A program made the translations under genes and the position numbers. The notes below the pieces were generated by a model. That model made no database searches. It saw only the letters and a program-made list of their open reading frames with translations, and was not told the DNA's origin. Positions 28,364 through 58,111 of a DNA stretch of 64,000 bases are shown piece by piece (within the stretch, counting starts at the first letter, position 1; every line of letters begins with the position of its first letter). Origin of the DNA: Takakia lepidozioides (taxonomy: Eukaryota > Plantae > Bryophyta); the NCBI GenBank assembly GCA_030704615.1, contig CM060734.1, positions 39,866,001-39,930,000 on the forward strand, in the 5' to 3' direction.

Positions 28364-30324
28364 ATGGATCGGCTGCTACAGGTAGAAGAGAGTGAGGTCA
28401 TTATTGACTATGACATCGGATCGTCATCTCGGACAGTACTTCATTTGAAGAATTTGATGCACACTATGCATGTTGCATTCAAAGTGCAGACCACATCTCC
28501 CGACAATTTTTCTGTGAAACCTCCTAATGGATTCATCCCACCGTTGGGGGAATATGTAGTCGAAATAGTTTTAAAGCCACAAAACAATCTACCAGAGCAG
28601 TTTCCAAAAAGTAAGGACAAATTTTTCATCAAGTCGGCTCTAGCTCCCGGTGGCAGCCTCACGGAGCGCGTGCCAAATGAATGGTTCGCATCTCGTAAGA
28701 AGCAAGTGTTTTTGGATGCAAAGCTTCGGGTGGTGTATACAGGAAGTTTAGTTCTCCGTCATTTGGTTGCCAAAGGCGCCATCGAGCATGTCAAATTTGT
28801 TCTTCAAAGAAATCAATCCTCTTGCAATAGCGGCGATGATAATGGCAGGTACATTTAAGAAGTTGGGGCTGTCATTCTACTTCCTTTATATTATAACACC
28901 AAATGCTTGATTCTAATTGCTAGAGCTTCTTGCTGACGATGAGGAGAGGTGGAAATATCCATGCATGATACCATCATATCTACACGCAAAATCTATGAAT
29001 TATTCTACTTTCGAATTGATCATAGTGGGTTTTTAACATTAATGTTCCTTATGTTCTATACGCAGAACGGCGCTACACATCGCAGCTGCCAGTGGAAATG
29101 TGGAAATGGTGAATATCCTCTTGGAAGCTGAAGCTAAAGTGGATCTAGTTAGCAAATCGGGCCAAACTCCCCTCCTTGAGGCAGCGTATATGGGCCACCT
29201 AGACATTGCAACGGCTCTTTTGGATAGAGGGGCGAACACAGAAGCACAAAACCCCTTAGGCTGGACCGCTCTTCACTTAGCAGCATCATGGAATCATTTG
29301 GAATTACTATCTCTCCTTCTGGAGCGGGGCGCCTATGTGGATGCGCGCGATCAAGAATCTCGTACAGCGCTGCACTCTGCCTCTAGCGAAGGCCATGTAG
29401 ATTGTGCAAAAGCTTTGCTACAAGCTGGAGCGGACAAGGATGCTTGCAGCATAGACGGACGAACTGCGCTTTTCAGGGCAACAGCCAAGGGAGATTGTGC
29501 AATGGTAGAACTACTACTGGAATGCGGTGCAAACAAGCACATTAAGACGGTGCAAGGGCAGACAGCCTATGATGTGGCTGTAGAGAAGAGCAATGTAAGT
29601 TGTTTTTCTAACTTAGCTTATAAGATCATTTGGCTCAATTTGTTTTGAGAGTCCGACGGGGTAAATGCATTTTGAATCTAATCTACTTGCATCGACAGAC
29701 AAGAGGATGTCTTGAAACGATCATGACACTTATATTTTCCGTGATTTTGCCATGTGGATGTAGGTTCTCCTGCAGAATATCCTTCAGATCGGGGATACAC
29801 TGTTGAGTGCCGCTCGTAAAGGGCAAGTTGAGGTAGTACGAAGTTGTTTGGACAGAGGTGCAAATGTAAACGTTTGCGATCAATATGGATGGACTCCCCT
29901 ACATATTGCAGCCTTCAAAGGGCATACCGACGTTGTGACGTTGTTGATCGAGCATGGCGCCTTTGTGAATTGCATAGACAAAGAGGGCTATACATCATTA
30001 CATACGGCTGTTTTGACCGGCCATAAGGAGGTGGTGGAGCTATTGATGAACAAAGGGGGCGACTTAGATGCCAAAAGTCTTCGCGGAACAACACCTGTGG
30101 CCATTGCTACCTCCCTCCAATATCCTGGCATTCTACGGCTACTCCTGAAGAAAGATGCATCTGAAAAAAGTTCTACAGTGCCTGCTAATCTGTCCGTCTC
30201 TTTGGCATCTGCACTGTCCGATTCCTTCAAACCCAACTTACAAGCTCTTAGCTCTTTACCACCCTCGACATTTTCTGGGGATCAGTTTCTACAAGAAAAG
30301 GGAAGCCTTGTATTTGCTCAATAG
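28364..30324 (+). CDS. VPY: VAPYRIN (MSP/VAP domain + ankyrin repeats); exons 28364-28848, 29066-29594, 29764-30324; 524 aa
   Basis: MDRLL start; LKNLMHTMHVAFKVQ...KP..G.I.PL...VPNEWFASRKKQVFLD MSP domain; many G.T.LH.AA ankyrin repeats. The GT-AG introns give a continuous frame. Confidence 0.9.
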
Positions 30325-30889
30325 GCTCCACCTTCTGTTTACTCAGTTCTAGGAGTTCAATCAACTTACCAAAAATAATTTTCGCTAGCGAGTTAGTGGT
30401 GGAAGTCGATGTATATGCTCCGACACTGGGATTATATGCACCGACTTGGTCCTCAGCCGGCATAGGATATACCACCTTTCGTAGATCCCATGTGGTTTTG
30501 TCTATGAGCAGATATCATTTTCGTGCGACATTCATTCTTTGAACATTTAACCAGACTAGAATAAAAGTCTGCTGTAAGAGAGTGCTCAATGCCATACTGA
30601 GATCCACTGTGTAGTCTGTATACTGGTGTGCAGCCGCAAATATTGTAAAGGGATGCACATACATCAATTTTCAAATAGATCTGCAGCTTAGTAACAAACA
30701 ATCATCTAGTACTAAACTAGAATGGTTTCGTCAGTTCGTGTACTTCCCATAAGCCTTAAGAATGTCGTTCGAAGTTCCGCCCAACGATCAGTTCTAGATT
30801 GTTTGCAACAGTGTCGACATCGTTGTACAAACAACCCCTCTCCGTCTGTCCGCACATTGTGTGCCCAACTACCCTCTGTAGGTCCTGAC

Positions 30890-31492
30890 CAGTGTTGGAC
30901 CGGTATACATGGTTGAACCTAGGTATGGAATATAGGTATGAGTATGTGTATTGAAAAACATACCAAGTCGGGTATGAATGAACCAATGTACTCTGGTGAT
31001 CACGTACTGGGGACAGTATGTCTTTAGGTTTCCACCCACACATACCAGACCGGTCTGGGTATACGGAGGCATACCATGGTCCCGATACCAGTATTGCAGT
31101 GAGTTCATGGCGAATAGAGGGGTGTAATCTGTACTACAATTTTGTTAATTCAAGGCTCCCTGCTGCAATTCAGACTTCATTGGCTGTTTTGTGGTACTTG
31201 GGTTATCTTTTGCCTAGTGTTTCACAGTTTAGATTACAAATAGCTATGTGCTAAATGACATTTATTTGTATGTATGGTGGGTTGTAGACATACCATACCA
31301 GTGCTCATATACCCCCAATCTCACTAAAGAGACAGGACAATACCAGTACCATACTCATATGCAGCCCAAAATACAACTACTCATATCAGATTCATACCCA
31401 AGTTGCTCATACCTGTATAGATACCCAGCCTTGGTATGGAAAAAGGGGTGGGACCCTTCATACCAGGACCAGTCTGGTATTGTCCAACACTG
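30890..31492. mobile_element. hAT-type MITE (603 bp)
   Basis: 11-bp TIR CAGTGTTGGAC/GTCCAACACTG; 8-bp TSD GTCCTGAC/ATCCTGAC (7/8 match); second copy at 57491. Confidence 0.88.
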
Positions 31493-35967: not shown

Positions 35968-36516
35968 CAATTTTTGGAATACCCTTTTGAGGTGCTCCAG
36001 GTGCTCCTCCTTTGTTTTCGAATACACCAAGATGTCGTCGATGTACACGATCACAAAATCATCCAACCACTCCTGAAAAAGGTTGTCCGTTAGCGTGCTA
36101 AAGGTCGCGGGTGCATTGGTGAGCCCAAAAGGCATCACCAAAAACTCGTATGAACCATACCTTGTCCTGCACGCGGTCTTCTCCTCATCTCCTTCCGCCA
36201 CTCGAATTTGATGATAGCCGGAGCGCAGATCGATCCGGCTGAAATACTTCGCTCCTGCCAACCGATCGAAAAGGTCGTCGATCCTTGGCAAAGGGTACCG
36301 GTTTTTGATAGTCACCTTATTCAGAGCCGTGTAGTCGACACACATCCGCAGCGTCCCATCCTTTTTATCTGCAAATAGCACCGGGGCTCCGTAAGGTGAC
36401 TTACTCGGCCGGATGTACCCCTTTGACATTAGATCTTTGAGCTGAGTCTTCAGCTCGACCAACTCTCTGTGGCTCAACCGGTAGGGCGCCTTGGCAGGCG
36501 GTTCCGATCCCGGTAT
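35968..36516 (-). mobile_element. Inverted ~550-bp RT fragment of the chromovirus family at 1-5160
   Basis: Nearly identical to 793-1341 ([12 protein letters not shown]...HLKRVFQKL). Confidence 0.95.
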
Positions 36517-38749
36517 GGTCTTCTTCTGCCACTTGCACTTGATTATATCCACTGAAGCCATCCATGAATGAGTACATCTCATGGCCTGCCACAGTGTCCA
36601 ATACTGCTTCTGTGAATGGTAAAGGGAAAGGATCTTTCTTCGTACAAGCATTCAGCTTCTTGTAGTTCACACAAACTCTTAGTTTCCCATTCTTCTTAGG
36701 AACTATCACAATGGGTGACAACCAAGTCGTATACTCTATCGGGTATAGAAACTTAGCATCCGCCAACTTTTTGATCTCTTCTCCAACCTTCTGTGCATAG
36801 TTGGGATTCATTCTGTATCTTGCTTGTTTGATTGGTACTGAACCTGGTTCCAGTTCAATTTTATGTTGACAGATCTCAGGTGGTATCCCTTTCAGATCCT
36901 CATAGCCAAGCAAATACATCTCTGTATTTGATGAACAGACTCTTAGCTTCCTCAAAGAATTCTGGCTCCAAATCCGCCCCTACCTTCACCATCCTTGGTT
37001 TCTCCTCAGTTCCCACATTTACTTCTCTCACTTGGTCATTAGCTGTGATTGTCCAACCAGTCACTACTTCATCCTGTAAACTTATAGTGGTTGGTTCCTC
37101 TAGGATTTCCATCTCTCCCTCCTTTTCTTCATAGAAATGTGGTGGGTAACTGCTCGGTTCCCCCTCCATTGGTGTTGCTGTCACTACTCCACAACAGATA
37201 TTTTTTAAATAACTGAGGCCTTCCAATTGCATCTTTGCAACCTGCTCCCACTCTGGGTGTGCAGCGAACAAGGTAGCTTCCTGCTCCTCATCCAATCCTT
37301 CTTTCCAATCATACTCTCTGACTCCTCTTGGTCTTCTTGTAGCCGATAGTCTTTTAGATTTCTGAGTGGTGATTTGTATCTTGTGCAACCCATCCTGCAC
37401 AGTTAGTAACTGTGAATTCCAGTCATGGGATACCCTGGCCTGTTTCAGCCATGGTCGACCCAACAATAAGGAATAAGCTTCCATGACTTCATCCATTTTT
37501 AGTACAGTTACTGTGATATTAAAGATCATCTTTTGAATCTGTATCTTAACTCCTCTTATCAATCCCAATGGCTGAACACTCCTTTGATCTGCCATTGTTA
37601 CTGTAAATGGGGCTGGTTTCATGTTATTTAGACCAAGCTTCTGTCTCAATTGGTCTGTCATGATATTCACTCCAGAGCCTCCATCTATCAAAACATCAGT
37701 TAACTTTGTGCTTCCAATTCTCAATTGGATTACTGGCATAGAATCATCAAAGTCCATGACCGCTTCTTGCCCTTCTGGCTTCACATTATAACTGGTCACC
37801 TTGCTGTTCAGGCCTGTATTCTCTGTCACATGGGCAATCCTATTGATTGCTTGGTACAGCCTGTGTCTACAATAAGGTGCCACAGTCAATAGCTGTCCAA
37901 TGGTAATTTCCACTTTGGACTGGCATATCACTTCAGCTAAAGTCCCTTCCCTACCCTACACTTCTGCAGCTTCCTTCTTTCCTTCTTTCCTTCTTCCTCA
38001 CTGACTTCTTCTTCTCTTTTAGAGTCTGAGGAATCTGCCATGGGAATATCAGTACTCTTCTGCATTTCCCTTATGGTATCCGCCACTTCTTTATGCAGTT
38101 CTTTCTCATCTCTCCAAGCCTCATCATCTTCAGGCACATCACTGCCATCTTCATTATCATCCACTTCCTCTTCCACTGGAGGTATTAATTTGGCTTTGCT
38201 TCTGGTTACTATCATTGTACTTACTTCCGGTACAACACATGGCCTAACCATGTGGGCTGCCACTACTGGCCCCTCATTCACAGGAGCTCTCATCTCATTT
38301 TGGTGTCTGATCCAGAATGGACAAGCCGCCTTGCGATGTCCTGCCTGATTACAATAGTAACATAGTTCTTCTCCATTGGGTCCTCGCCCTTGGTCTGTTC
38401 TGGGATTATTTCTGTAATCCTGATTCCCTGGCTGGTAATTTCCCCTATAATTACCCTGATAGTTGCCTCTGGGATTTCCTTGGTAATTCCCTCTTGGATT
38501 ACCTCTCCTTTCCATGCCATTGTTATGACCACCAGACCTACCAAAGTGGTCCTGATCATTGTTTCTTCTTGGCTGGGGCTGCACTTGATGCACCCTTACT
38601 TGTCTAGGTTCTCTTGCTGCTATCCTTCTGTTGTAGTAACAATTCTCAGTAGAATGGTTATCCATTTTACAGATAGTGCAGTGTTTCTCCTTCATGTGGC
38701 ATTCAGTGGTGGTGTGGCCTTCATTCTGGCATTTTGCACACCAAACACC

Positions 38750-39445
38750 TGTCGTGCGCATACATATCGCTACACAACTACATCGCTGTCCAAAACCACA
38801 CAACACATGTGCACACCACACACTAGTATATCACTAGTCTACCACTAGTCCAGCCACTAGTCCAACCACTAGGCTACAACTAGTCAGTCACTAGGCTGCC
38901 ACTACGCTGCCCACTATGGCAGTCACTAGTCCACACAATGATAAAGAAGAAGAATACAAGCACAAGCTTATGCGAGCTCACAAAGCTGAAGCATAAACTC
39001 ATGCATATATAACCTCATCACTCAAATACAAGTCAAGCCAAGTGCACCCCACGCCATGGGGAATCCACACTACGGCGCCATAGCTAGGCGCGGTGAGGCT
39101 CAACTCGAGAAAGATGAGCCTCCCGCGCTTGCCGTGAAGATAACCACTCCAGGGCCTAAATCTGCCTTGACCCCTGGATTGACACTTGGGCCAATCCCAA
39201 ATGTCAATATGTAAAAGCTAGCTATTTCCTAGCTAGTTTCACACTAGTGGTAAAATAACTTGACAGCTGTCGTGCGCATACATATCGCTACACAACTACA
39301 TCGCTGTCCAAAACCACACAACACATGTGCACACCACACACTAGTATATCACTAGTCTACCACTAGTCCAGCCACTAGGCTACAACTAGTCAGTCACTAG
39401 GCTGCCACTACGCTGCCCACTATGGCAGTCACTAGTCCACACAAT
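38750..39445 (-). repeat. 3' terminal repeat block: B1 (39445-39268), GC, A2 (39265-38939), B2 (38939-38750)
   Basis: 38750-38939 equals 39268-39445 apart from a 12-bp indel. 38939-39265 equals 50337-50660 apart from a few indels and substitutions. Confidence 0.95.
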
Positions 39446-39702
39446 CGCCCCCTAGCTGGTGCTTAGGTCCCTCTAAGTCCAGGTAGCCACAAGATGTGAT
39501 AGTGACCATAGCCTCACTAAGTCCTCCACCACTATCCCTACTACACTCAAACTCGATAGATCAAGAGGCCGGGTGCAAGAGTTGCCCCATCGTTAGTCGC
39601 CGTCTTGCAACCTGTGAACTTGAGCTTGGGATCTCATGTATTGACTCCTATGAGCTTGGCCTCCCATGTCTTGTTAGCTGCCTCCAGTCATGTCCACTGC
39701 CA

Positions 39703-42677
39703 CTATCCCAAGCAGTGTGGACACAACCAATCTCCGTCAGGAACCTTCTCAAGAGGTGGTGTCAAGCATCCCATATGCCAACCCCTTGAGCATCGATCAC
39801 ACACCAGCATGGTGGCTGCCCCTTTGGCAGACCCACAGAGCATGCACCTCAAACCTGCAGGTACCACTGCCAAGTTTGGGTCAACTCTGCCATCGACATT
39901 GGGAAGGTGACATGGCGCACAATTACGCACATGGTCCTTCCAAGTCATGCCATCCCGACCCTCCAAGATCAGGACCCCTGAGGGCAACACCTCTCGAACC
40001 CTCAGAATAACACGCCCTGCAGTAACATCCAGAGTCGTAGGAGCAGTCTGCTGCAAATAAACATAGTCACTGGGCTAAACCTCCGAACCCCAGGACGATA
40101 TCCTCCACCACGTATAGTGGCATACCTCAACGTATCACGGTGCTGTGCAATGGCAAGGTTCTCAAAAGCCATGGGCATGACTTTCTTGAATAACTCTGCA
40201 CGCTGATCACATGCACGTACCCACACGTCCGGATCGTCAAGGTTAAGGACTTGAGCAGTGTCCCTACGAATGGCTGCAGGCAAATCCGGCTCTCGGCCAA
40301 AGAGAAGGAAATATGGTGAGAAGGAGGCAAGTGATGCTTGTTTGCTGAACCTGTAGCCCATGGCTAACCAAGGAACCTGAAGATCCCAATCTCCTAGGTG
40401 TCCCTTCTGCAAGCCATACTTGCGCAAACCCCTCTTCACCGTCTGAACAACTCTCTCTGCTAAGCCATCGGCCTCAGGATGATCCCGAGAAGTGGTGCGG
40501 TGGTCTATCAAGGCTTTATCACACAAAGCCTGAAACTCCCCCAAGAACTCTCTCCCTTGGTCCGTGAGTACCTCAGCTGGAGCACCAAATCGGCTAAGCA
40601 CACGATCCAAGAATGCATACGCAGCCCCCTCACTAGCCTTGTCAGGCAATGGAACCAACTCAATCCACTTGGAGAAGTGCTCCACCATCACCAACACATA
40701 TCTGTGGTGGCGCATAGTCAGTGGCAACGGTCCTGCGAAGTCAAGACTCCACCTGTAGCCCAATCCCATGATAGGTAAAGGATGCAACTGTGGTGTAGGG
40801 GCGTTGAATGAAGCACGCACCCTGTCACACACCATGCACCTAGCCACAAACTGTTGCACCTCTGTATGCATACCACGCCACCAATACTGCCCCTGCAGTA
40901 AACTGTGAGTGCGTCGCACTCCAAAATGCCCCAACTCCTCATGGGCATGCCGCACTAACCGTGCACGCTGTGTGGGCTGAGGTACAATCCTCACCCGACC
41001 ATCCTCCCACACTCGAAGTAGGTGTATCCCCTCCCACTTGAACCTCTTGGCTCGTTGCAGGATCCGATCCCTCTCCCTGGCAGTCACAATGGCTGCCGTG
41101 TCTCCCGTGCGGAGGTAGTCCAACACAGCCGAATCCTCATGTATATCTCTGGCACCACCTAGCTCATCACTAGCCTCAGGGTCCTCAGACACTCCGTCTA
41201 CAGTCATCCCTGTTGTAGGTCCAATCTGACCTCCCGATGCCAAGATACACAAAAATGCAGATGCGTGCCATCCCGACACCATCTCCTCGTCCGTCTCACC
41301 ATGCCACCGAGCTCCAGTGTCATCCTGCTGGCTCATGCATGGATTGCGACTCAATCCATCCGCATCCCGATTGACCAAACCCGGTCGATGCACAACCTGA
41401 AAGTCATACTCCTGGAGTATAAGTGCCCACCGTGCAAGCTTCCCCGTAAGCTTGTCTGACTCCATCAACCACTTGAGTGGCTGGTGATCCGTGACAAGGG
41501 TGAAAAGATTGCCGTATAGATAGCACCTGAAGTGTGCCACGGCCCACACTGCAGCTAAGCACTCTCCCTCATATGAGCTGTACTTAGCCTCTGCAGCGTT
41601 GTTCGAGCGGCTAGCGTAAGCCACTACGAACTCTCTTCCCTCATCATCCACCTGTGTGAGCACCGCTCCAAGCCCCAGCATGCTCCAATCCGTATGCAGC
41701 TGAAAGGGATGCCCCCTGATAGGTCGTCTCAAGATAGGCGCCGAGGTCAACCTCGCCTTGAGCTCTTGAAAAGCTCGTTCCTGCTCATCTTCCCACTGCC
41801 ACTCCTGGTCCACCTTGGTCAGCTTGGTTAGAGCCTTTGCAATGGTACTAAATCCCTTGACAAACCGTCTATAATAGTTTGCCAACCCCATGAAAGCTCG
41901 AACTCGGCTCACATCCGTGGGGCGTGGAATTTGTGCAATGGCCTCTACCTTAGTCTGCTGTACCCCCAATCCTCCAGGATATATCATGTGACCCAGATAC
42001 TCAATCTGGTTGTGGAAAAACTTGCACTTCCCCGGATGCAACTTCAATATGTGCGCTCTCAAGCGCTCCAATACCACCTGAAGGTGTCTCTCATGCTCCT
42101 CCATCGTAACACTAAAGATGATGATGTCATCTATGTAGCACCGAGCAAAGTCCACCCCTGCTAGAATCCTATCCATGACTCTCTGAAACTCTGCAGGAGC
42201 ATTCTTAAGCCCAAATGGTAAGAACCGCCACTGATATAGGCAATCCTTGCCGTGCTCATTGATCCCCCAGAATGCCGTCTTCTGCTTGTCCGCCTCCTTG
42301 ATTGGCAACTGGTGATATCCGGATCGTAAATCCAAAGTGCTAAAGGCCTTAGCATGCCCGATGGCATCAAAGATCTCCTCTGGTGTTGGCATGGCATACT
42401 TATCGGACTTGGTCTGACGATTTACAGGCCGGTAATCACCGCACATACGTCTCTCCGTCCAATTGCCATAGACATCCTTCTTGGCTGGCATCACTGTGGC
42501 TGAAGCATACTCTCCACCAGAGAGCTCCACCAAACCTGCCTCCGAGAGATCTTGAGTCCTCATCTGAATCAAAGACCTCTCCATGTCACTGTATCTATAG
42601 GGTCTCCGAAAGATTGGCGTGTCAGTGGCCAACTCAATACGGATCTCTTGACCCTTCAGTGCTCCCAAGTCCTTCAA
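39703..42677 (-). CDS. Pol: RT, RNase H, integrase and C-terminal PHD finger (frameshift near 40070)
   Basis: RMCGDYR, LPFGLKNAP, YIDD; TDWS, DADGLSR; HEELGH...CMVC, SLDF, LTDQG, GLAERVV; CMLC...CDRC...WHMGC...PPL..VP.GDWLCPHC. Confidence 0.93.
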
Positions 42678-43129
42678 ACTGAAGGCAAAGCAATTCCTGT
42701 AAGCCCTCAGGAACCGCCGTATACGTCGTCTCTCTCCTCCGGTGACAATGGGTCCAATGTCAGGCTCCCAATTGTCCTCCGTAACTACAACCTTAAGTCC
42801 AGTGGGCTTAGAGGTAGAGGACGCGTCCCGTGGTTGCTATGCTGCAACCTCTTGAGCAGTACTCCCTGCCTGCTCAGTCAATGACAAGGCATCATCCTGC
42901 CCCATCATCTCATCCTTGAGGACCTCCTCAACTCGAGAAGAATCCCCAACCTCATCCATCACAGCCGCCTTGGCTGCCAACTCCCTCTGAACCTCGAGCA
43001 CCTCCCACGTGTGCCATGGATGCATGCACCCCGTGGTCCTCATATGCTCGCCCCCACTCACTGCCTGTACCGTCTCGATAGGCAGAGAGACCATTGAGGG
43101 AAGTGTATTCCGCACTCTGCGTTGCTCAG

Positions 43130-44090
43130 CTAGAGCCAAGCTGATAATCCAGGTCAAGCAATTGAGATCCATTGCTTGCCCCAACACTTGACGACGTGAT
43201 GCCTCAGAAAGAGACGACACCGCCGTGGTACCAGTGGTAAAACCCATTGCCTGCTCACGCTCGTCAGCATTAGGCTCCACTAACTGCTGCAACTGAGCAT
43301 CCCACAGGAGGCCAGGTCCACTATCCCGGAAAGCATGCGATCCTGGGAAGCTGAGCAGTGTAGGTAATGCTGCTCGTGGTTGACCCACCTTGTTGACCAC
43401 TGCCAAAGGCAAACGGTCATCGTGTCTCACACGTTGAGACTGCCTCCCTGTGTCCAGAATGTTATCCACTGTGAGATGTGCTGGCCGCTGCACCCCATCA
43501 AATGCACGCTTGAGCAGTGCGGGTGGCATCATGTTAGTCCACCATAGCCGTGGACGATGAGCCCGTGACCCCACTGTAGCTGCATCCAGCAACACTGCTG
43601 ACCCAAGCCACGACCGGACTTGATGCACACTGGCCATCACCCTGGCCCGAGAATCGCCCATCAGTGGCACATTCTCCAAGATGTATGCTGGAGATACAGC
43701 TTGATGAAGCTGCAAGTGGCGCAAAACCCGCACCATCTCCCAAAACAGACCCGACCTCGAGTCTCGCAATCCATTGCCATGCCCGGCTGATGAATGCCCT
43801 TGGCAGGGCCAACCTGCCACTACCAGATCAATGGAGCCAACCCGCTCCAAATCCTGCGCCCCCAGCAACAAATGTCTGCTGGCAAGGCCTGCTGATATCC
43901 ACGAATTGCAGACAGACAACAACTCAGGGTACCGCTGCACCAACTGAGCAACATGGCGAAGTGAAACGCGTCGTGCAGTCTCATCCCTCTCCACATACAG
44001 GTAACGCCGAACTCGTACACCTGCCTGTAACACAGCAGCCAATCCGGTGCTGATCCCGCCAAACAAGTCCAGAAGACAAATGCCTTCATC
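43130..44090 (-). CDS. DNMT3-like C5 cytosine methyltransferase domain inside the polyprotein ORF 42837-45455
   Basis: Motif I LLDLFGGISTG, II YVERD, IV VAGWPCQ (catalytic Cys), VI ILENV, VIII AHRPRLWWTN, IX EREQAMGF, X RRQVLGQAM. Confidence 0.93.
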
Positions 44091-44479
44091 CGGAGACTGC
44101 CACACAATAGGTGTGGTGTCCAATGGAGACAATTGAGGTGGTCCTGGTGCAATCCCCACACTCTCCTCCTCTCCTGACGGTACAAAAGCCTCCACCCAGG
44201 CTTGTTGCACCCGTCGATCAGCATCCCGCTGCAAATCCTTGCTCGTGCCCCACAATGGAGTCTGAGCAACCATGGTAGGCAACTCCGCCATACCATACAT
44301 GTCATCCTGCTCTCCCGGAGGTGGTACATCCTCTGAATGAGCATTGCCCTCAAGCAACTCTCTAGGCCAACTCACTGCCGCTGTGAATGCTGCTAGTGTC
44401 GGCATCTTGCCTCGCTGGGCAACCGCAACTCCTCCTATGAACGTCACAGGGAGCTGCGCACGCCGGCCCTCCCCTGACT

Positions 44480-46995
44480 GCCATGCAGGCCTATAGGAAG
44501 CTGACTCCTCCCAAAAATCCAGGGTGAAGCCCATGGGGTACAACACTGCCCCACCAACCAGGACATCGTATGAGACTGCGTCTGTCACAATGGCCTTGGC
44601 TCGCATCACTGAGCCATCTGTAGGGTGATCCGGCCGTAGTCTGATAGCCAACTCATGCCGTGTCAAGCCCCGAGCCTGCTCCGATCCTCCCAGAGATGTC
44701 TGTATCTGGAAAGGACAAGGCTCCATATCCGCCTCCGTGAGGCCCAAGCCTGCAATAGCAGCTCTGCCCAGCATCAGTGGCTGAGCTCCCGAGTCCAACA
44801 AGACTCGTAGTGGCCGGTACCTCTTGCCTGCCGGTCCACTCAAACAGAAAATGCCATCCTGGTTGTCTAACATGACAACTCCAGGTGTCACCATGGCGCG
44901 CTCAATGGCTGGCCTAGCTGGCAGCTCCATCAACCTGGCAGCTGCAGCTTGCCATGGCGCCGCCGTGGCAGTCTTGACCCTCAAATCCGAGGATCCCTCC
45001 GGCACTACACCTCCCACTATCTCCGCAGAAGATGAAGTAACCTCCCCACTCTCACAGAGTGTAGCTGCCAGCCTGAACACCTCAGCTGGTCTTACCCCCG
45101 GCGTCGCAATCATGGTAGCCGAGAACAATGGAGCCTGGCACACAGATGTGGCCGCTCCTAGCAGCACACTAGCTGCCGTAGCCTTGGCAACACTAGGTAG
45201 TGGTGCTACCGTGTAGCTCTCCCCAATGGCATAGTAACCGCCGCCTCGGTAACAGTCGGCGAGAACTAGGTGCCATGGATGGCGTCGACACTGTCTCCGC
45301 CAATGTGAATGACTGAGGAAGCCTAGCCTGACGGCTTGCCTCCCCACGCTGTGGATCCAACTCCACCTCTGCACCTCGTGGCTCAGGAACTGTGTGCTCC
45401 TCGAGTCACGGCTGCAGCAGACTCCACCTGCACTAGTGGTAGTGCTGCGCCACACATGAATCCCATGCCTCCCATATCTCCTCCCTCAGGAGCAGGAGGT
45501 GGACCATCCGGCCTTAGAGCGCGGTACCACCTGAGCTGTAGCCATGGCAGCGAGCCTCTGCTCTAGCTGCTGAAGCCGGTTGGCCATGCCTTGGTCAACA
45601 CCCTGACCTCCGCGTCCTTGGCCACGTTGAGCTTGCCCTTGGCCTCGTGGCTGGCCACCTCGTCCCTCTGGGCTGCTCCACCTCGCCCCCGGCCACCATT
45701 GTTCCCTTGGAACTGGCCTGGGCGCAACTCAGGATGCAAACCATAACACTGAGCCTCTCCATGCCCGTGTTTGCCACAATGCCCACACTGTAACTGTGCA
45801 GGCTGTGCATGTGCCGGCCCTTTGCCTCCCTCTGGACAATCCTTCTTGACATGGGGTCCTCCACATGTCCAGCACACCACATCCGCTCGTTGTTGGCCAG
45901 CAAATGAAGGGAGAGCCCTGCATCTGAGGTCCTCTCTGCCCTTCCCTGAGCTTCACCTGAGCCCCCTTGTTGCCTTGAGCACGTTGAGGTAGTGGTTGGC
46001 TAGGAGCACCACTACCCCGTGGTGTCTCCTTAGCAAATCCCACCATGACCACTCGTTCCTCCACCATGTTGAGCTCTATCCGCTCTGCCAGCAAAAAACA
46101 TTTGCTAAGGTGGGTTGGGCCGCTTGTAGGAGAGTTGCATCCCGCACCCTTCTCCTCAGCTCCTTGTCCAATATCCCATACCAGAATTGGACTGCCTGAG
46201 CTTCCGTAACCCCTTGGGTTACATTTATCAAGCGCCTCATGCGAGTGAAAGCCTCCCTCAAGCTCTCGGTCGGCTTCCGTTGGAACTCTTGCAAGCTCCG
46301 CAACTTCTCTGTCCTCACCCCTTGATAGTTCCCTCTCAACTCTTCGAAGAACTCCACAACAGGGTTGAAGGCAGGCACGGGTGCTAGTGCTGGTGCGGTA
46401 GTGGCTTGGGTGGACGTCGTAGCTACTGTACCACCAGTCCCACTGCTGCTTGCTGAAGCTGCCGGTGCAGCGGCAGGTGTAACCACTGCCCTCGTGGCTC
46501 TAGTGCCCCTAGTGATGGAGACATAGTCGGGTGACCAGTACATCCTCCACTCCTCGATCTCAACCTCATGCCCCCGCCTGAACTCATGGTAATCATCCAT
46601 AGGCGGCCCCTCAAGGTGCTGAAACAGCCCCTTCCATGCCATGAAAGGCGCGTAAATAGTTGTGGATTGCGCATTTGCTGCAAATCACACCAACTATCAA
46701 ACTCTTGGATAAAATCATCCAACTCGATGGTGCCCACCGCCCCAGAGTATCTTCGTGGCCCCTTGGTAGCTCCATACATCTCCTCCATTGTGTCCCACAA
46801 CAATGGCAAAGAAACAACTTGCACCGCCGGTATGAGTCCTCCCGATTCACAATCCGAATCAGAACCTTCCGTAGAAGACACAGGAGGTGAAGGTGGCCTA
46901 AACCGCACACCTCGTCTCGTGTACCCACTAATATCGCTAGTGCTCGAACCGGCACTGTCCCCAGCAACTAGTGGCACCTCCGTGTTGACACTCAA
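44480..46995 (-). CDS. Gag (two CCHC knuckles) and aspartic protease of the DNMT element; frameshifted
   Basis: FQRKPTESLREAFTRM gag motif; CWTCGGPHVKKDC and CGHCGKHGHGEAQC; RVLLDSGAQP and YDVLVGG protease motifs. Confidence 0.85.
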
Positions 46996-47699
46996 CCGGT
47001 CATGAACATGTCCCTAACCCCCTCTTCACAAGGTAACCCGGGTAGAGAACCTGTTGCGGCTTATGGTTTGGAATACTAAGTTCCTAACATAGCCTACACC
47101 TGTACCTGCATCCACCGCAAGCACTCCTATGGTTGGCTGGTCATCACCTCCAACCTCACCACAGGAGAAACAATGATGGTCTGGCTGGTCATCACCCCAG
47201 CCTCACATCGACAGCATGCTCTAGGACTGGCCGGTGATCAAATCCGGACCAATCACCTATAAAAACAAGCGCCCACACAAAACTAGCATGGCGCACAGTC
47301 AAGCATGCAGGTATGGAGGGGATCCAAACACAAGAAATCAGATCGACAACTCCCCCACACCAAAAACAACTCCACGGTGTTGCTCCTGCAAGGACACCCC
47401 AGCCCAAACCCGGACTGACTCTTGCCTCCACCTACGGAAAGGTCTTGGCCTAATGAGAGGGTGTGAAAACTACAAGAAGAGAAGCTAAAGCAATGCCTAA
47501 CCCCAGCATGCTCTCATCCCAACACTCTGCCTCTCCTCTCTATCCTCATTGCATGACCATGGGAATATCATGAAGATACTCCTCAAACCGCCCTCCACGA
47601 GCTTCAAAATTCGGCCTTCCAGACCACATGCCAGTCCTTAGGCAGTCCACCAATGCCTCCACGAGTCAGCACAGGCCGTCCACAGGTCAACACGGGCCA

Positions 47700-48810
47700 C
47701 CACAGACCAGCACAGGCCCACACAGCTCACTGGTCACAGCCGTCACAGTCCCACAGGCCTGGGCCAGCCTCCTGTCGCAGCCCCTCACAGCCTGTCACAG
47801 CCTCAAAGGCCTAAGGCACGGCCTGTCACAGCACCCTCACAGCCCCTCACAGCCCAAAGGCCATGGGCACGGCCTGTCACAGCCCGTCACAGCCCGTCAC
47901 AGCCCCAAAGGTCAGGCACGGCCTGTCACAGCCCCTCACGCCCTCACAGCCTCAAAGGCTCAGGCACGGCCTGTCACAGCCCTCACAGCCCGTCACAGCC
48001 CAAAGGCCCTGGGCACAGCCTGTCACGGCCTCGCCACAGCCTGTCACAGCCGTCACAGCCCCATAGGCCTAGCGGCAAAGCCTCACAGCCCGTCACAGCC
48101 CAAAGGCCTCAGGGCACGGCTGTCACAGCCCGTCACAGCCCCAAGGCCACTGGGCACAGCCTGTCACAGCCTGACACAGCCCGTCACAGCCCCAAGGCAA
48201 GGGCACAGCCTGTCACAGCCCATCACAGCTTGCCACAGCCTGTCACAGCCCGTCACAGCCCCACAGGCACTGGGCACAGCCTGTCACAGCCCGTCACAGC
48301 CCCAAAGGCCATGGGCACAGCCTGTCACAGCTCGCCACAGCCTGTCACAGCCCGTCACAGCCCACAGGCCTCAGGGCACAGCCTGTCACAGCCCCGCACA
48401 GCCCGTCACAGCCCCAAGGGCACAGGGCACAGCCTGTCACAGCCCATCAAGCCCGTCACAGCCCCAAAGCCTCAGGACAGCCTGCATCACAGCCCGTCAC
48501 AGCCCCAAAGGCCACTGGCACAGCCTGTCACAGCCTGACACAGCCGTCACAGCCCCACAGGCACAGGGCACAGCCTGTCACAGCCCCGTCACAGCCCACA
48601 GGCCATGGGCAAGCATTGTTGTCACAGCCCGTCACAGCCCCAAAGGCCATGGGCACAGCCTGCACAGCCCGTCACAGCCCCACAGGCCTCAGGGCACAGC
48701 CTGTCACAGCCCCGCACAGCCCGTCACAGCCCCAAGGCCACTGGGCACAGCCTGTCACAGTGACACAGCCCATCACAGCTGCACAGCTTGCCACAGCCCG
48801 TCACAGCTCC
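47700..48810. repeat. ~1.1-kb minisatellite of 10-bp units GTCACAGCC(C/T) in the 5' leader of the DNMT element
   Basis: Dozens of ctgtcacagc/ccgtcacagc units interspersed with aaggcc/gggcac linkers. Confidence 0.95.
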
Positions 48811-50336
48811 AACACTGGCCGCTCTGTAGTTTAGCCATTTCTCCAAGGGGTTTAGCCACGCCAAGCTAGGTTTGTGTCTCTTGGACTCTAGGCTTCTTTC
48901 CACCGAGCTATGGTGGCTGTGAGGAAATCAGCAAGGTATCTTGCTCTTCGGCTCTCCCACACACCACCATAGTAGCCCTAAGCCATGAGGTGGTTGCCAC
49001 AAAACCAAGCCTTCTTTCTCACTTAGCCTCCCCAAACACGCCACTAAACTCAATGGCAAACAACCAAGCCCTGCTGGTTCCCAGCCTTGTGAGCACTCAT
49101 TCAAGCACTCTTCTTGGCCATAGCATCTGTCTTAGAGCCTATTCCAGCCCCTACACCTGCTGCTTCAAGAGTTGCGCTCCCTTCAAGCTTTGAAGTTGAA
49201 ACCCCAACTCACATAGGCCCTACAAGTGCTGTTCTTCACTCCAAGTGGAAACCAGCCCTAGACCTTCCGTTCTAGCTCTCTAAGGCTTGAAAACAAAGAC
49301 CTCAATGGGCTGAAGGCATGCTCCACACATGCCCCACTCTCACCATAAGAGAATCAGCTCCTTTGCTTCATTTCTTGCACCCACAAACCTGAAATACAAG
49401 TCAGCAGGCTGAAAGCATGCTCTACATGCCCTACAGGGAAACCAGCCCCTTCCTTCCTTCCTTGCACTCCCACACCTAAAAGTGCAAGCCTCAACAGGCT
49501 GATAGCATGCTCCACACATACATTGCCCTCACATAAGGGAAGTCAGCCCTTCCCTCTTCCTTGCTTGCCCTCCAAGCTTGAAGATGGAAGCTTCAATGAG
49601 CTGAATACATGCTCCACACATGCAACCTCTTCACACAAGAGATATCAGCCCCCTATCTTGGCTCCTTGGCTCCTTGATGCTCTCTAAGACAAGACTAAGC
49701 ACTCCACAGCCTTGCCAAGCTCCTGAAACCCTAAGGCTTACATTTCCAGCAACAAGACACTTCTCTTGTTTGTGTGCAAGAGCTCTTCTTCCAAGCTCTG
49801 AAACCCTAGGTGCACATTCCATGGCCTTGCCGCACCTCTTAGCTCCTGTTCCAGCCCTGCTCTTGCCATGACAAGAGCCCTCTCAATGCTGAAGCTCGAG
49901 ATTGAAACCCAATCTCACCATACTCCACAAAGTGCACTGATTTGCCCCAAGCCAAATCAGCCCTTTCGCTTGGTCTTGCAATCCTTCACACAATGAAGCT
50001 CGCATTCCCAGGTCTAGTTCTCAGCTTTGCCACAAAGCCACTAAACCTGCTCTTGACTGGTCCTCTTCCCAATCGTGCTTGCTCATGCATGTACACAATC
50101 TGAAACCATCAAGGTGCTCGAAATTACCTGCAGCATGGTGCTTTCATCTCTGAAGCTGAAGATCGAATGCCAAGGTCTACACCTCGTAACCCACATCGCC
50201 TCCGCTTCTAACAACCAAGAGCTCCATGGTGCTCCTTGCATAACAACTTGGTTTCTCTCAATCTCAAGCAAAAAACCACAAGTGCTACAACTAACTCGTA
50301 TCTAGACTCATAGATACGAGATTGATCTTTCTCGAG

Positions 50337-50660
50337 TGATAAAGAAGAAAGAATACAAGCACAAGCTCATGCGAGCTCACAAAGCTGAAGCATAAACTCA
50401 TGCATATATAACCTCATCATTCAAATACAAGTCAAGCCAAGTGCACCCACGCCATGGGGAATCCACACTACGGCGCCATAGCTAGGCGCGGTGAGGCTCA
50501 ACTCGAGAAAGATGAGCCTCCCGCGCTTGCTGTGAAGATAACCACTCCAGGGCCTAAATCTGCCTTGACCCCTGGATTGACACTTGGGCCAATCCCAATG
50601 TCAATATGTAAAAGCTAGCTATTTCCTAGCTAGTTCACATAGTGGTAAAATAACTTGACA
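50337..50660 (-). repeat. 5' terminal repeat A1 of the DNMT element
   Basis: Near-identical to 38939-39265; reads TGTCAAG...TTATCA on the coding strand. Confidence 0.95.
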
Positions 50661-52761
50661 CACCCTTCCTCCAATGTGGTTGACCAGCTCTGTGGAATAC
50701 TTTTTCAAGATGTTTCTAACTTTTCTCATATTTTCTCTCTTCAATCTTTTCTTCTTTTTACTCTTCCTCTTCTGTTCCAATTCTTCTTCTCATTGACTCA
50801 TCCTCTGAGTCTTCTCATCTCTTTTTCTCTCCTGAGCATCCCAATTGCTCAATTCGTGTGCTGTTTCAACATGCCTCCTCCACTGTATTGTGGGGTAACA
50901 TGTCAACTTTCTTTTGCAGGATCTGGTCTTAGTCAATTCAAAACAAGCCTTTGTAGCCCTGGTGTGGGTAAGTTGCCAGGCTTTTCATCATCAGTCCATT
51001 CTTTCCATATACTTTCAACAGTTTCATGTTCTTTGCTTCAACGTTGTAAACTGCCATACACTTATCCTCAGTTTTACTGGTCCTGAAACTTATTCGGAAC
51101 GCTGGTGGTACTCAAGCCATTCCAGGTTAGGAAATGATTATCTGGGAATCTTGCATTACCATTCAATGGCTTTATTTATAAGTGAACACCGAAACAGTCT
51201 CATCTTGGCATCATCGCCATTCTCATGTTCACTATACACATGTGCTCGAATTGGCTAATGTGTACATCATGATCCCTTTTTCCTGAATATATTGGAAAAG
51301 GTGCGGTTTTGCCCGTGTTTGTTTGTAACGCATCTGTGTGGCCTTACCCCCTGCCCTCCTGCAGGTGTTTGGCCCTTTTGACTGATACTGGTCCTCGAGG
51401 ACCTCTAGTAGTTGTGGTGGTTCTTACACCAAGTACTGGCCCTGAGCACTTCCTGCTCATGGCCTCTACTATTAGCACAGTATTCCCAGCCTCAGTTGTA
51501 AACTATTTCCAACAATCCTTGTCACCACAGAACCAGATCCAGGTCTTCCGCCTGATCCCTCTGAGCCGACACCTTCGTGGCCGGTGTCAAAAAAAGTGCT
51601 CCACTTGATCCAGGTCCAACGGGCTGGGATGTCCTGGTTGTAGTTCAACCTCAGCTGCTGGGTCTACTTCTTCATACTCCTCATCTTCAATTTCTTCTCT
51701 CTGTTTTTCATTTCCCAAGTTCTGCCCTTGGGCTTTTCTTCTTCAGTCATGTTAAACTGTTTTGTATAGTGTTGGAGAGTTTGAACTCTCCATTGGCTTC
51801 TGCCACCTCATCTTCAGTTAAGAAAGGGGTTCCTTTTTTGGTGTTCCACGCCACCTTATCAAAGATTTCCGTTCAATCTTTTATCAGGGATGCACCTAAG
51901 ATCTTTCACCTCGTGTTTGATTTTTCCCCTGGCAACAATCCCCTTAATCTTTATTGCAAAGAAAGGGAAGGTGTAGTATCCAACTCTAAAACTCTTCCAG
52001 TTGGGTGAGTACTCCCTAATCCAATGGTGTGAGAGGTCCGATGATTCACCAATGTCTATTCCTCTCTCCCAAACGGTATGGATAATTAGCTTTCAGATAA
52101 CTTTCTCTTTTTGCTGAATATATCTGGGTCTAGCTTCTCTTTCATCATCAGTCCCATGTCCTTAGGTTCTTTTAATGTGGGCAGATGACCAAAATCCTTC
52201 TGTAGTATCTCTCGTATATGCTTGGGTTGCTCTCAAGCTTCAATGTTCCTCTGGATATACTAGAAGTCTCCGTTACCATATATACCATATGGAAACAAGT
52301 CTGAAAAGCTGTTCTTGGTGTGGTTTTTGATCCACAAGAGATCGTTTGGAATCCAGAGTTCTTTACCAGTACAAGTTCCTCATCATATGAGTATAAACAT
52401 CACTTTATTCCTCCCAGCTGTCAAACTCTACTCGAGCTTAATGGATAGCAGGGCTTTATCACATAACCAGGTGTTGATAACCAACGTGAATCTTCCTCTA
52501 CAGGCACCTGAGAAACTCGTTATCACTCCTTTCTCCAGACCCAAATTCCGGGTCAGCATCATGCACTCTCTTAAGAATTTTTCTGACAACCGTTCTGGCA
52601 ATCCAGAACCTCTGTGAACGAATTGTTTAGGAAATCTTTCCTTCTTGTTCACAGGGGAATTTGATCACATAAATTCTTAATCTCCAACCGACAGATCCCA
52701 CCAGATTGCCGGTTCACATTCTGGTTGTTCATTACCCAGTTCCCCAGTCATGGTCGCCAAA

Positions 52762-55718: not shown

Positions 55719-56532
55719 TCGAGAATTTTGAAGCTAGTAGATAGGGTATAGGCACAAACCTGCAAATGGATTTGAAGAGGGCATCTCCCTTGTGACATAA
55801 AGGACTTTATACCTAGGACAGAAAATTAGGAAATAAATAATATATTTGTCTTCAAGTTGTCCACACCATGGGCATTGGCAATCCACTTTTCCTCTCTACT
55901 TCTGTTTGCTGTCCAAATGTAGGCTTCCCGCTTGGAGTTTACATTCAGTTTATAGCCAAGATTGACCTGAATGGGCCTATGGCTTAGCGTTCAGATTTAC
56001 AAAGTTGGTAAATAGGGACACATGAATAGTTCCCTGAATGGATTCTCACGGGCATTTGCGATCCCCCTTCCTCTCTGATTCTGTTTGCTGCTGAAAGGTA
56101 GGCTTAATCCTACCCTAAGTTTAAATTAGTCTAGTGCCGAGAGTGTGAAAGAAAAGAGAAGGAACTCACGCGTCTGGATGCGGCAGGGGGCCTGGATTTG
56201 GGACTCATCCCGGTGTTAGGACTCCAAATCAATCCAACCTTAACACTATAACATGCAAAGAAGACAAGATAGGAGAAAAGAAGATATAAACAAGACTAGT
56301 TCTCCCTAAACTAAAGAAGATAAAAAACAAGGCTGCATGGTGCATTTGGACAACAAACAAAAGTAGAGAGGAAAAGTGGATTGCCAATGCCCGTGGTGTG
56401 GGCAACCTGAAGACATTATTATTCATATCCTAATTTAATGTCCTAGGTATTCTCACAAAGGAGACGCCCTCTTAAAATCCATTTGCAGGTTTGTGCCTAT
56501 AATACGCTATCTACCAACTTCAAAAATCTCGA
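55719..56532. mobile_element. MITE/foldback-like element with ~80-bp imperfect inverted repeats
   Basis: TATAGGCACAAACCTGCAAATGGATTT core (~55748) inverted at ~56476-56502, with extended flanking similarity. No TSD seen. Confidence 0.55.
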
Positions 56533-57490
56533 ACAAAAGGTCCAGTGAGTAAGCTTACCGCATTGGCCTGGTTGAAAAGGGCTGATTCACGGGGCTCCAC
56601 AACTGGTTGCTTGAGTTTACGGATTCGCTCCCACACAGTGCTCAATCTGGCTATTGCTGCAGATGTCTGTATTCACCCTCTTGCTTAAACTTATTGCGAG
56701 AGAATTCACAGAATGATAGTATTTGGACGTCAGACATAAAGCGTGCAAAAGAGACCCCGTGGATGGAGAGTGGGTTGACCCCCTTTGGTGAAAAATGTAC
56801 AGCAAGGCAATTTTAAATGATGGGATTTTAGGTTGTAGACTGGTCAAGTGACCCTGAAATACAGTAAATCTCAGGGAGCTTGTACGTGGCAAGCTAGATT
56901 GTAACTTTGTGCATATAACTTTGAAAACATAGTCAATAGATGTATCTCAGAAATCCTAATCTTCCAACAGATATTCAGAAATCAATCACCAGTCCCTAAC
57001 TACCAAGAATATGTGTATATTTATTTAAAGATACTAAACCAGGTCATCAACCATAACAACAACCCAAACTTACACTCAACGGAGTTTGCCAGGCATGCTT
57101 CCACATTTCGCGTTCATGTCAGCAAGGTCAGTCTCCAAATTTACATCCAGTGCAATCCCAACTTTGATGATGTCAGCATCAACCTCTTGCCTACTTACAA
57201 GGCTCCCAGGTCAGCACATGCATTGAGGATGCAAATAACCCTCCTTTTTGCTGTCATTTCATAATACGAGCCAAGAGCCCACATTTGTAGGATGGACTAA
57301 CTTCTTAGCATGGCACATTAAGAAAAAGCCACACCTTGTGATTGCGGTTGTCCCACCATGATCATGAAGAATCTTTACAAACTTATGCCAGCTTTGCTCC
57401 GTGCCGAGTCTGATGAGAGGGCAAAACAGGCTGAAATAGGTCGAAGAAGAAGGTGCCCTCACCACATTGTCCTTGACCTTGTGTCATGAC

Positions 57491-58111
57491 CAGTGTTGGA
57501 CTGGTATACCTGGTTGAACCTAGGTATGGAGTACAAGTATGAATATATATATTGAAGAACATACCAGTCGGGTATGAAAGAACCAGTGTACCCATGTGAT
57601 ACACGTACTGGGGGAGTATGGCTTTAGGATTCCCCCCACACATACCATACCAGTCTGGATATATGGAGGAATAGCATGGTCCTGATACCAGTATTGCGGT
57701 GAGTTCATGGCGAATGGAGGTAGGTATGAGTATATGTTAGTGCAGCTAGTTATACCCTGTACTACAATTTGGTTAATTCAAGGCTCCATGTTGCAATTTA
57801 GACTTCATTTGCTGTTTCGTGCTACTTTGGGTTACCTTTGCCTAGTGTTTCACGGCTTGGATTAAAATTAGCTATGTGCTAAATGACATTTATTTCTTTG
57901 TATGGTGAGCTGTAGAAATACCATACCATTGCTCATACCCCCCAGTATCACTACAGAGAAAGGGCAATACGAGTACCATACTCATATATAGCCCAAAGTA
58001 CAACTACTCATACCAGATTCATACCCAAGTTGCTCATACCTGTATAGATACCTATACCAGCCTGGTATGAAAAAGTGGTAGGACCCTTCATACCGGGACC
58101 AGTCTGGTATT
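57491..58111. mobile_element. Second copy of the hAT-type MITE, right TIR lost
   Basis: Colinear with 30890-31492, starts CAGTGTTGGAC and is preceded by GTCATGAC. Confidence 0.85.

Follow-up and report, generated by a model that had tools for sequence, protein, structure and literature searches.

Why should a retrotransposon carry the kind of enzyme that silences it? This question is raised by a 64-kb stretch of land-plant DNA (the window, by which we mean the whole stretch analysed), where a Ty3/Gypsy element encodes a cytosine methyltransferase (DNMT) within its polyprotein. DNMT-carrying retrotransposons have been described from dinoflagellates and one alga (PMC5890265), and according to a passage of a review, 'land plants, such as tracheophytes' have no methylase-encoding transposons (PMC6338049); a 2026 preprint uses the wording 'streptophytes (Gypsy-DNMT3)' in a passage that names no bryophyte element. 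Liverworts and Sphagnum do, however, contain DNMT-carrying retrotransposons. We found no report of a land-plant element of this kind in the literature, although Repbase, subscription papers, and preprint supplements could list such elements.

A Gypsy element with a methyltransferase and a PHD finger

The element occupies positions 38750-50660 of the window on the minus strand (11.9 kb). A domain profile search recovered the Ty3/Gypsy order of Gag, protease (PR), reverse transcriptase (RT), RNase H, and DDE integrase, into which additional parts are set, such that the full order is Gag-protease-DNMT3, an in-frame TAG, and RT-RNase H-integrase-PHD finger.

47669-48820, no strand assigned: tandem array of units based on about 10 nt, in the 5' untranslated part
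45200-46800, minus strand: gag with zinc knuckles (PF03732, E=6e-4)
44495-44840, minus strand: aspartic protease, LLDSGA, with its Asp at ~44795 (PF13650 weak, E=0.07; conserved in homologs)
43116-44099, minus strand: DNMT3-type C5 cytosine methyltransferase domain (motifs I-X linear; profile, sequence, and fold evidence)
41967-42659, minus strand: reverse transcriptase (PF00078, E=9e-32)
41406-41795, minus strand: RNase H (PF17917, E=1.5e-35)
40074-40976, minus strand: DDE integrase with H2C2 zinc finger (PF17921, PF00665)
39706-39850, minus strand: PHD finger at the integrase C-terminus (PF00628, E=1.8e-11)

The profile search found no chromodomain, the mark of chromoviruses, after the integrase of the window element; the PHD finger lies there instead, and the solved PHD fingers nearest to it are those of CHD4, KDM5B/A PHD1, PHF12, and ATXR5. 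The gag frame of the window copy is shifted near 46648, 45910, 45665, 45521, 45394, 45257, and 45208, and the integrase frame is broken near 40069. These gag shifts are absent from many other contigs; copies were studied through sequencing-run contigs and other hosts. The original prediction of a Gypsy retrotransposon was borne out, with the conserved TAG, the split-repeat ends, and the PHD finger being features that it did not include.

The methyltransferase domain is of the DNMT3 type

A minus-strand frame at 45485-42837 (882 aa) contains the protease together with C5-MTase motifs in linear order: I (LDLFGG, ~44072), II (YVERD), IV (PCQ, ~43808), VI (ENV, ~43676), VIII (HRPR, ~43560), IX (EREQAMGF, ~43265), and X (LGQAM, ~43184). 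The permuted order that is a trait of DRM enzymes was not seen in the element's DNMT. In a profile search the window frame matched PF00145 (E=5e-12), the top PDB sequence matches of the domain were DNMT3A/B, ahead of DRM and M.HhaI, and profile E-values were 7e-26 for DNMT3A, 1e-14 to 1e-10 for DRM-type enzymes, and 1e-8 for HhaI. A fold model based on an alignment reached a pLDDT of 91.4 (single-sequence folding gave 35) and matched the structures of DNMT3B (Z 27.3, rmsd 2.8 Å, 279 aligned) and DNMT3A (Z 26.4); outside DNMT3, M.MpeI gave a Z of 23.6 and other structures 21.4 or less, and DRM2 was not among the structure matches listed for the model. Judged by profile and modeled fold, the domain is therefore nearer to DNMT3 than to DRM, DNMT1/CMT, DNMT2, or bacterial enzymes. 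This agrees with the original prediction of a linear, DNMT3-like enzyme unlike DRM, disturbed only by a short compensating frameshift at ~43880-43920; we place the frameshift at ~43915-43870, and the corresponding residues 77-81 are the only internal part of the model with low confidence.

The catalytic motifs PC, ENV, and RxR are all present. Across 46 diverse homologs, E149 and R191 are invariant and C106 is conserved in at least 90%; indeed, few alignment columns are better conserved than those of the catalytic Cys, Glu, and Arg and of the SAM-binding motif. This argues against a non-catalytic role, in which the domain would bind DNA, shield cDNA ends, or act as a decoy of host DNMT3 partners. 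Such a role would draw support from KnitGypsy-Dnmt3, a DNMT-bearing Gypsy element of Klebsormidium nitens (de Mendoza et al. 2018, PMC5890265), for which no de novo methylation was seen in yeast; nevertheless, its authors call the result inconclusive and human DNMT3B failed the same test (PMC5890265), and we regard a non-catalytic domain as improbable. The element-borne SymbioDIRS-Dnmt3 did methylate CG de novo in yeast, but it belongs to dinoflagellate DIRS elements of independent origin according to the same authors (PMC5890265).

Host DNMT3 genes of non-flowering plants (PpDNMT3a/b) also have a linear DNMT3-type catalytic domain, but bear a C-terminal DUF3444 (PMC6453930) that had no match in a profile search of the window element and homologs P0112, P0118, and P0018. 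The element's DNMT is intronless within the polyprotein, whereas the host type is a multi-exon gene.

An old lineage under purifying selection

Named relatives were found in Marchantia, Calypogeia, Sphagnum, Closterium, and Scenedesmus, and the same domain order recurs in other hosts. The host of the window copy is probably a bryophyte, as its MSP-ankyrin gene matched only 5 sequences, of which those with a name are from liverworts, at 60-65% identity. No tracheophyte name occurs among the 93 matches listed, a minority of matches being named; searches of viral contigs yielded no relative with query A3 and weak partial DNMT matches at 48 loci with query A6. The element is a bryophyte branch of a lineage reaching zygnematophytes and chlorophytes and not a fresh capture, and the window copy is a young member of this old green-plant Gypsy lineage.

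Between the window copy and a related locus (L014), pN/pS was 0.218/0.791 in the DNMT and 0.138/0.754 in the RT, compared with 0.441/0.844 in the linker between protease and DNMT. Segregating DNMT variants in the host family comprised 11 synonymous and 6 non-synonymous changes (p=0.014; 40 of 55 rows listed). Omega in the Sphagnum-type family was higher in the DNMT (0.61) than in the RT (0.43), with 0.76 in the protease and 1.07 in the PHD finger; these copies are decayed, and drift after insertion therefore dominates omega. Among supported splits of the DNMT tree, 30 of 44 were also present in the RT tree (at most 2 in shuffles) and 9 of 44 conflicted with it, and pairwise distances of the two domains were correlated (Mantel r=0.72, n=79). 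The DNMT domain is thus under purifying selection and has co-diverged with the RT.

These results remove the main doubts attached to the original prediction of an element-borne DNMT3-like enzyme in an embryophyte, namely that the domain might be confined to this copy, might evolve neutrally across copies, or might have junctions that reads do not support. On the last point, 93,820 contig pieces from one run map to the 8-kb element, where coverage of the DNMT is similar to that of the RT, and in a second organism one contig covers the DNMT and the stop in frame. The many frame breaks of the window copy might suggest that a host DNMT3 was captured just once, that the domain is a nested insertion, or that the assembly is at fault, but this is scarcely credible, being refuted by the homolog set: the same order occurs elsewhere, relatives lie on 8-30 Mb contigs of Marchantia, Calypogeia, and Sphagnum, selection is purifying, and the trees are congruent.

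A conserved stop codon separates methyltransferase and reverse transcriptase

The DNMT had been thought to run in frame from the protease into the RT; the first part holds, but the second does not, as an in-frame TAG (42839-42837) lies between DNMT and RT.

42831-42839, minus strand: conserved stop with its context, TAG CAA CCA, predicted readthrough site
42725-42825, minus strand: possible stem-loop 3' of the stop (z=-2.0; weak)

We rejected the possibility that this TAG is a decay mutation: TAG or TAA is found at the position in 35 of 37 de-duplicated related loci, compared with 0.7% in 83 neighbouring codon columns. Unbroken Gag-PR-DNMT proteins of 1319 and 1332 aa finish at the same position. 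Because the TAG is conserved, the DNMT ends the abundant Gag-protease frame, not Pol, and the element probably benefits from a large supply of the enzyme.

TAG CAA CCA in the window copy and L014 fits UAG followed by CAR-YYA, the readthrough signal of TMV (PMC2194720, PMC2754532), and the Sphagnum-type family mostly has CAA CCC (35/37), one base off this consensus. Similar to the present element, MuLV, Tca2, SIRE1, and TMV have an in-frame stop between two frames and a CAR-YYA context, but their stop lies between gag and pol or pol and env, whereas here it follows protease and methyltransferase (PMC2194720, PMC2754532). It is likely, from codon context and conservation, that the stop is read through. 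One may postulate instead that it is real and never read through, with RT-integrase arising by re-initiation or from a transcript that is spliced or internal. The weakly supported stem-loop (z of -0.4 to -2.1 in four relatives, with little covariation) leaves room for this, but the DNMT and RT frames are in register across three families with differing linker lengths, TAG CAA CC is retained while its flanks diverge, and the stretch from the stop to the RT start contains no Met in the window copy; we therefore give this scenario little credence.

Split repeats and a possible route of integration

The element does not end in the two complete LTRs expected of Gypsy elements; its ends are split direct repeats in the arrangement A...B-A-B.

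50661-50664, no strand assigned: target-site duplication, left copy, CACC on the plus strand, identical to 38746-38749
50337-50660, minus strand: repeat A1, where the element begins with TGTC
50502-50513, minus strand: predicted 5' end of the transcript, 12/12 complementary to the primer site, suggesting Tf1-type self-priming
50325-50336, minus strand: primer-binding position directly after A1, without TGG, complementary to 50513-50502
39445-39455, minus strand: polypurine tract directly before B1, conserved in a second family
39268-39444, minus strand: repeat B1, ending in GACA
39262-39271, no strand assigned: palindrome GACAGCTGTC where B1 meets A2, predicted as a site for the integrase, same in L005, L037, and L059
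38939-39265, minus strand: repeat A2
38750-38938, minus strand: repeat B2, where the element ends in GACA
38746-38749, no strand assigned: right copy of the target-site duplication, located within the zinc knuckle of another Gypsy element's gag

A1 and A2 differ by 3 substitutions and 5 gap columns in 323, and B2 differs from B1 by one 12-nt duplication and zero substitutions. TG...CA ends with a 4-bp target duplication are exact in the window; among seven related copies, five are exact and two match at 3 of 4 bases. A self-priming match of at least 9 nt was found in 10 of 20 decayed copies, compared with 0 of 20 in the control. Tf1/Sushi and Tcn1 likewise have no tRNA primer site and show complementarity to their own 5' region, although they are chromoviruses with ordinary LTRs (PMC6317226).

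The split repeats, self-priming site, and internal palindrome fit a permuted two-LTR circle. The RNA would prime itself as in Tf1 and yield a normal cDNA in which B+A is the real LTR; its ends would then join into a two-LTR circle, and the integrase would open this at the internal B|A palindrome to leave A...B-A-B. The termini would then suggest routine circle integration, long disputed as a side route for retroviral integrases. Foamy-virus integrase provides a precedent for opening a circle at a palindrome, but there the palindrome is the LTR-LTR junction and here it lies within the LTR (PMC1180852). A free circle should, however, open at either palindrome, and no left end had B upstream (0/20; A-B-A...B forms absent), a one-sided pattern that counts against the circle model.

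The missing forms would be accounted for if the ends arose by DIRS/Ngaro-type replication through a circle, the A...B-A-B geometry of split direct repeats being the same in DIRS (PMC5890265). We consider this origin of the ends unlikely, if worth keeping in view: the polypurine tract right before B1 and the primer site right after A1 are where a B+A LTR predicts them, and DIRS/Ngaro elements use a tyrosine recombinase and make no target duplication, whereas the window element has a DDE-type integrase and 4-bp duplications, and a profile search of it found no tyrosine recombinase.

A proposed role for the enzyme in the particle

KnitGypsy-Dnmt3 offers the nearest description for comparison, though by description and not by tree, as no named K. 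nitens sequence is among the homolog matches listed. Both elements have Gypsy domains and DIRS-like split repeats, and in both the DNMT3-related domain is intronless, non-permuted, and under purifying selection (PMC5890265). In KnitGypsy-Dnmt3, however, the DNMT shares one ORF with RT and RNase H, whereas here the Gag-PR frame ends at the conserved stop; its authors describe that DNMT as having been gained in the K. nitens lineage, whereas the present one is in land plants; and the paper's text mentions PHD 0 times, whereas the present element has a PHD finger (PMC5890265).

Our preferred reading, which we hold to be probable but far from assured, is that the Gag-protease frame ends in the DNMT3 domain and a leaky stop so that the DNMT is made and packaged at capsid level and likely methylates the cDNA of the element itself, either ahead of insertion or as it takes place. 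Given the position of the DNMT at the end of the Gag-protease frame, many enzyme copies per particle are predicted. Readthrough of a few percent would give the long protein with RT-RNase H-integrase-PHD, the protease would free the DNMT inside the particle, and the PHD finger may tether the integrase to histone H3, such that a new copy would be already methylated on arrival. CpG o/e of the element is 0.52-0.58 and that of other elements in the window 0.21-0.91; CpG/CHG depletion as a trace of self-methylation is thus within the range of neighbouring elements and not diagnostic.

Alternatively, Gag-PR-DNMT could act in trans in the nucleus and methylate rival elements, the chromatin of the host, or the site of insertion, but not the cDNA of its own element. 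Expression at capsid level gives much more enzyme than one cDNA requires, and the moss host DNMT3 works in heterochromatin (PMC6453930). On the other hand, the PHD finger is on the integrase and not the DNMT, the DUF3444 found in host plant DNMT3 is missing from the domain, and delivery into the particle is the simplest explanation of the Gag-frame position; action in trans therefore also seems rather unlikely to us.

Action on the element's own cDNA may be extended, as a speculation we judge doubtful, to a green-plant-wide lineage, recently mobile in land plants, that supplies capsid DNMT3 via the leaky stop, integrates as a two-LTR circle, and methylates the first-made LTR duplex, including the CAGCTG palindrome core, such that the integrase cuts only the other site. 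If true, this would amount to a restriction-modification-like logic inside a retroelement, and would account for the joint occurrence of the DNMT and the split repeats and for the single permutation seen.

Why an element carries an enzyme that silences it can be tested in Marchantia, a plant with genetics and methylomes. Marchantia polymorpha genes annotated as 'hypothetical' belong to this lineage (Mp4g09160, Mp8g17980, Mp6g11220, Mp2g26090, Mp8g15430, and Mp7g09570), and element DNMT genes can confound inventories of bryophyte DNMT3.

Structure of the DNMT element

The Gypsy retrotransposon of the window that carries a DNMT3-type C5-methyltransferase domain (the DNMT element) is delimited as follows:

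38750-50660, minus strand: whole element, starting with TGTC and ending with GACA

A 4-bp target duplication flanks it, and it has inserted into another Gypsy, within the zinc knuckle of the latter's gag. With A1/A2 and B1/B2 denoting its split direct repeats, the element reads A1, a long leader that includes a tandem array, gag, protease (PR), DNMT, TAG, RT, RNase H, integrase, PHD finger, polypurine tract (PPT), B1, A2 and B2. The original prediction had placed DNMT between protease and RT; that order holds, except that an in-frame TAG separates DNMT from RT. Only 3 substitutions in 323 columns separate A1 from A2, and none separates B1 from B2, which marks the insertion as young. Many sister contigs lack the frame breaks of the window copy, which may in part be assembly errors. 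In one sequencing run, 93,820 contig pieces fell on 8 kb of the element (a figure distinct from copy number); summed depth was similar over DNMT and RT, showing DNMT to be a regular component of a large family.

The methyltransferase and PHD domains

On the minus strand, frame 45485-42837 codes for 882 aa that comprise an aspartic protease and, in frame with it as predicted, the full C5-methyltransferase motif set in linear order; the proposed profile search returned PF00145 at E=5e-12 (Pfam). The compensating frameshift at ~43915-43870 is likewise real in the window copy, and this stretch forms one frame in homologs, in many same-family contigs and in a 2.75-kb contig of a second organism. 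An AlphaFold model built on a 46-sequence alignment (pLDDT 91.4) agreed with the DNMT3-like wording of the motifs: Foldseek placed DNMT3A first (E=9e-21), and among 48,161 chains the top match was DNMT3B (Z 27.3, rmsd 2.8 A, 279 aligned), above M.MpeI (Z 23.6) and structures of DNMT2, HhaI, DNMT1 and CMT. A domain search of the element DNMT protein detected no DUF3444, a host-gene domain.

The PHD finger lies at the integrase side (E=1.8e-11), and its nearest solved domains are those of CHD4, KDM5B/A PHD1, PHF12, ATXR5, PHF21A and UHRF1. The majority recognise unmodified H3 tails, a property shared with the ADD domain of animal DNMT3. Further Gypsy elements adjoin DNMT elements at two related loci outside the window (L029, 16124-18004; L027, 1-2025); a distant PHD-like tail is likewise present in the L029 element, which means that relatives with a PHD finger may be more widespread.

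Distribution and phylogeny

At E<=1e-10 the DNMT matched 61 proteins, including gene models of Marchantia polymorpha, Calypogeia fissa, Sphagnum fallax and S. troendelagicum (50-77% identity), and the same domain order recurs in 75 metagenome loci whose linker matches the S. fallax protein almost letter for letter. The domain is thus not confined to one copy, and a one-off capture is extremely improbable. A deeper search gave 241 clusters at E<=1e-30; the 205 proteins mapped include 26 Gag-PR-DNMT, 22 PR-DNMT and 27 RT-RH-DNMT-INT-PHD forms, Scenedesmus being among the last, and Closterium has a DNMT-RT form in a single frame.

DNMT and RT trees share 30 of 44 supported splits and conflict at 9, and distances correlate across 79 elements in which both domains are near full length (Mantel r=0.72). 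We infer that the domain was captured once, long ago, and later changed its place in the polyprotein; the trees, built from element sequences other than those of Klebsormidium nitens and without host DNMT3, do not fix donor or direction. Many Gypsy polyproteins (P0141-P0274 and P0299-P0324; Scenedesmus, P0146/P0275) have the order RT-RNase H-DNMT-integrase-PHD, in which the DNMT position differs from that of bryophyte elements, and form a separate branch on both trees. Two internally deleted copies (L028, L055) have B directly after the RT start, with an identical junction, and possibly represent a non-autonomous Gag-PR-DNMT-only subfamily.

A conserved stop codon downstream of DNMT

We merged 76 sequences into 61 clusters, 37 of which aligned across the stop site. 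The codon there is TAG in 26, TAA in 9 and TAC in 2, with CAACCC directly following in 35/37; stops occupy 0.7% of the remaining codon cells. The window and L014, a locus of a third family, both read TAG CAA CCA despite linkers unlike in length and sequence, and continuous Gag-PR-DNMT proteins, those of sister clades included, terminate at this stop. The readthrough signal of TMV has the form CAR-YYA and gives ~10% readthrough in vivo, and in retroelements Gag:Pol is held near 20:1 (PMC2754532, PMC2194720). The sequence suggests that DNMT is produced at the Gag level, with RT-integrase-PHD as a readthrough extension; production of Pol without readthrough seems quite improbable.

Termini and replication

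The arrangement A...B-A-B is complete in three related loci (L009, L059, L065). Of 7 copies, 5 have identical target duplications, and in the other two 3 of the 4 bases agree. Right ends carry B then A in 8 cases and B alone in 9, and B was found upstream of none of 20 left ends examined. The PPT lies directly 5' of B1; the 12 bases after A1 lack TGG and are fully complementary to a stretch within A. In the second family the letters differ and the pairing is the same, reaching at least 9 nt in 10/20 copies, of which 8 have it at the corresponding position (control, 0/20), with a TATA-like box ~30 nt upstream. Because of the PPT before B1 and the self-pairing at the primer position, the true LTR is most likely B+A. 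A palindrome, GACAGCTGTC, common to different families, forms the B|A junction, and the inserted form would correspond to a two-LTR circle opened there, at only one of its two sites. Foamy-virus integrase offers a precedent for opening at a palindrome (PMC1180852), proposed here by analogy. A DIRS-type origin of the ends is unlikely. At L009 10837-10857, ~18 extra bases and PPT-like letters at the A2/B2 junction fit the imprecision expected of end-to-end joining of linear cDNA.

Selection, role and novelty

The proposed dN/dS-type check pointed largely to constraint on the domain. Between families, DNMT pS is 0.65-0.79, near saturation, and the pN values are 0.22-0.27 (DNMT), 0.14-0.18 (RT) and 0.42-0.53 (PR-DNMT linker); for the window copy, 16 codons around the frameshifted segment were omitted. 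Within the host family, the window's own, 17 segregating DNMT variants (rows present only in the second organism excluded) comprise 11 synonymous and 6 non-synonymous, versus 36% expected (p=0.014; based on 40 of 55 rows). Against this, omega within the decayed Sphagnum-type copies is 0.61 (DNMT), 0.43 (RT) and 1.07 (PHD region).

A packaged DNMT would methylate the element's own cDNA, a role we consider rather probable. Action in trans on chromatin is considerably less so, and retention for a non-catalytic role somewhat less again; the K. nitens element enzyme was without activity in yeast, where human DNMT3B was likewise inactive (PMC5890265).

DNMT-carrying retrotransposons are a known kind (same source). 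Our literature searches found no land-plant report, in keeping with the original prediction; as far as they show, occurrence in land plants and chlorophytes, the stop placing DNMT on the Gag side, the PHD finger, and the self-priming and permuted-LTR reading are apparently new, and Fig. 4c of that 2018 paper, preprint supplements and Repbase, which lay outside the searches, may show some of these.

Other features of the window

664-3531 (+): open chromovirus pol (RT-RH-INT-SH3-chromodomain), CpG o/e 0.91, nearly without depletion; 549 bp are repeated inverted at 35968-36516 (96%), inside another Gypsy
5164-6621 (+): PPR-like gene fragments, in which 390 bp are duplicated in tandem (96-97%)
7493-10437 (-) and 19323-20903 (+): related frames in opposite orientation, the first with a SWIM-like Cys/His motif by eye; a Pfam scan of both gave no match at 0.001; they may belong to a DNA transposon family not yet described
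11330-12880: AT-rich array of ~62-nt units with a palindromic core
28232-30324 (+): VAPYRIN-like gene with ankyrin exons recognised by Pfam and an MSP exon at 60-65% identity to proteins of Riccia and Marchantia (Mp8g02160); the 5 matches to the MSP-ankyrin gene, liverwort proteins best, make a bryophyte host probable
30882-31481 and 57483-58111: dispersed 630-bp repeat, 84% identity
52762-55680 and 55719-56532: adjoining elements with long inverted repeats; subterminal units of the first resemble the leader tandem array of the DNMT element (47669-48820)
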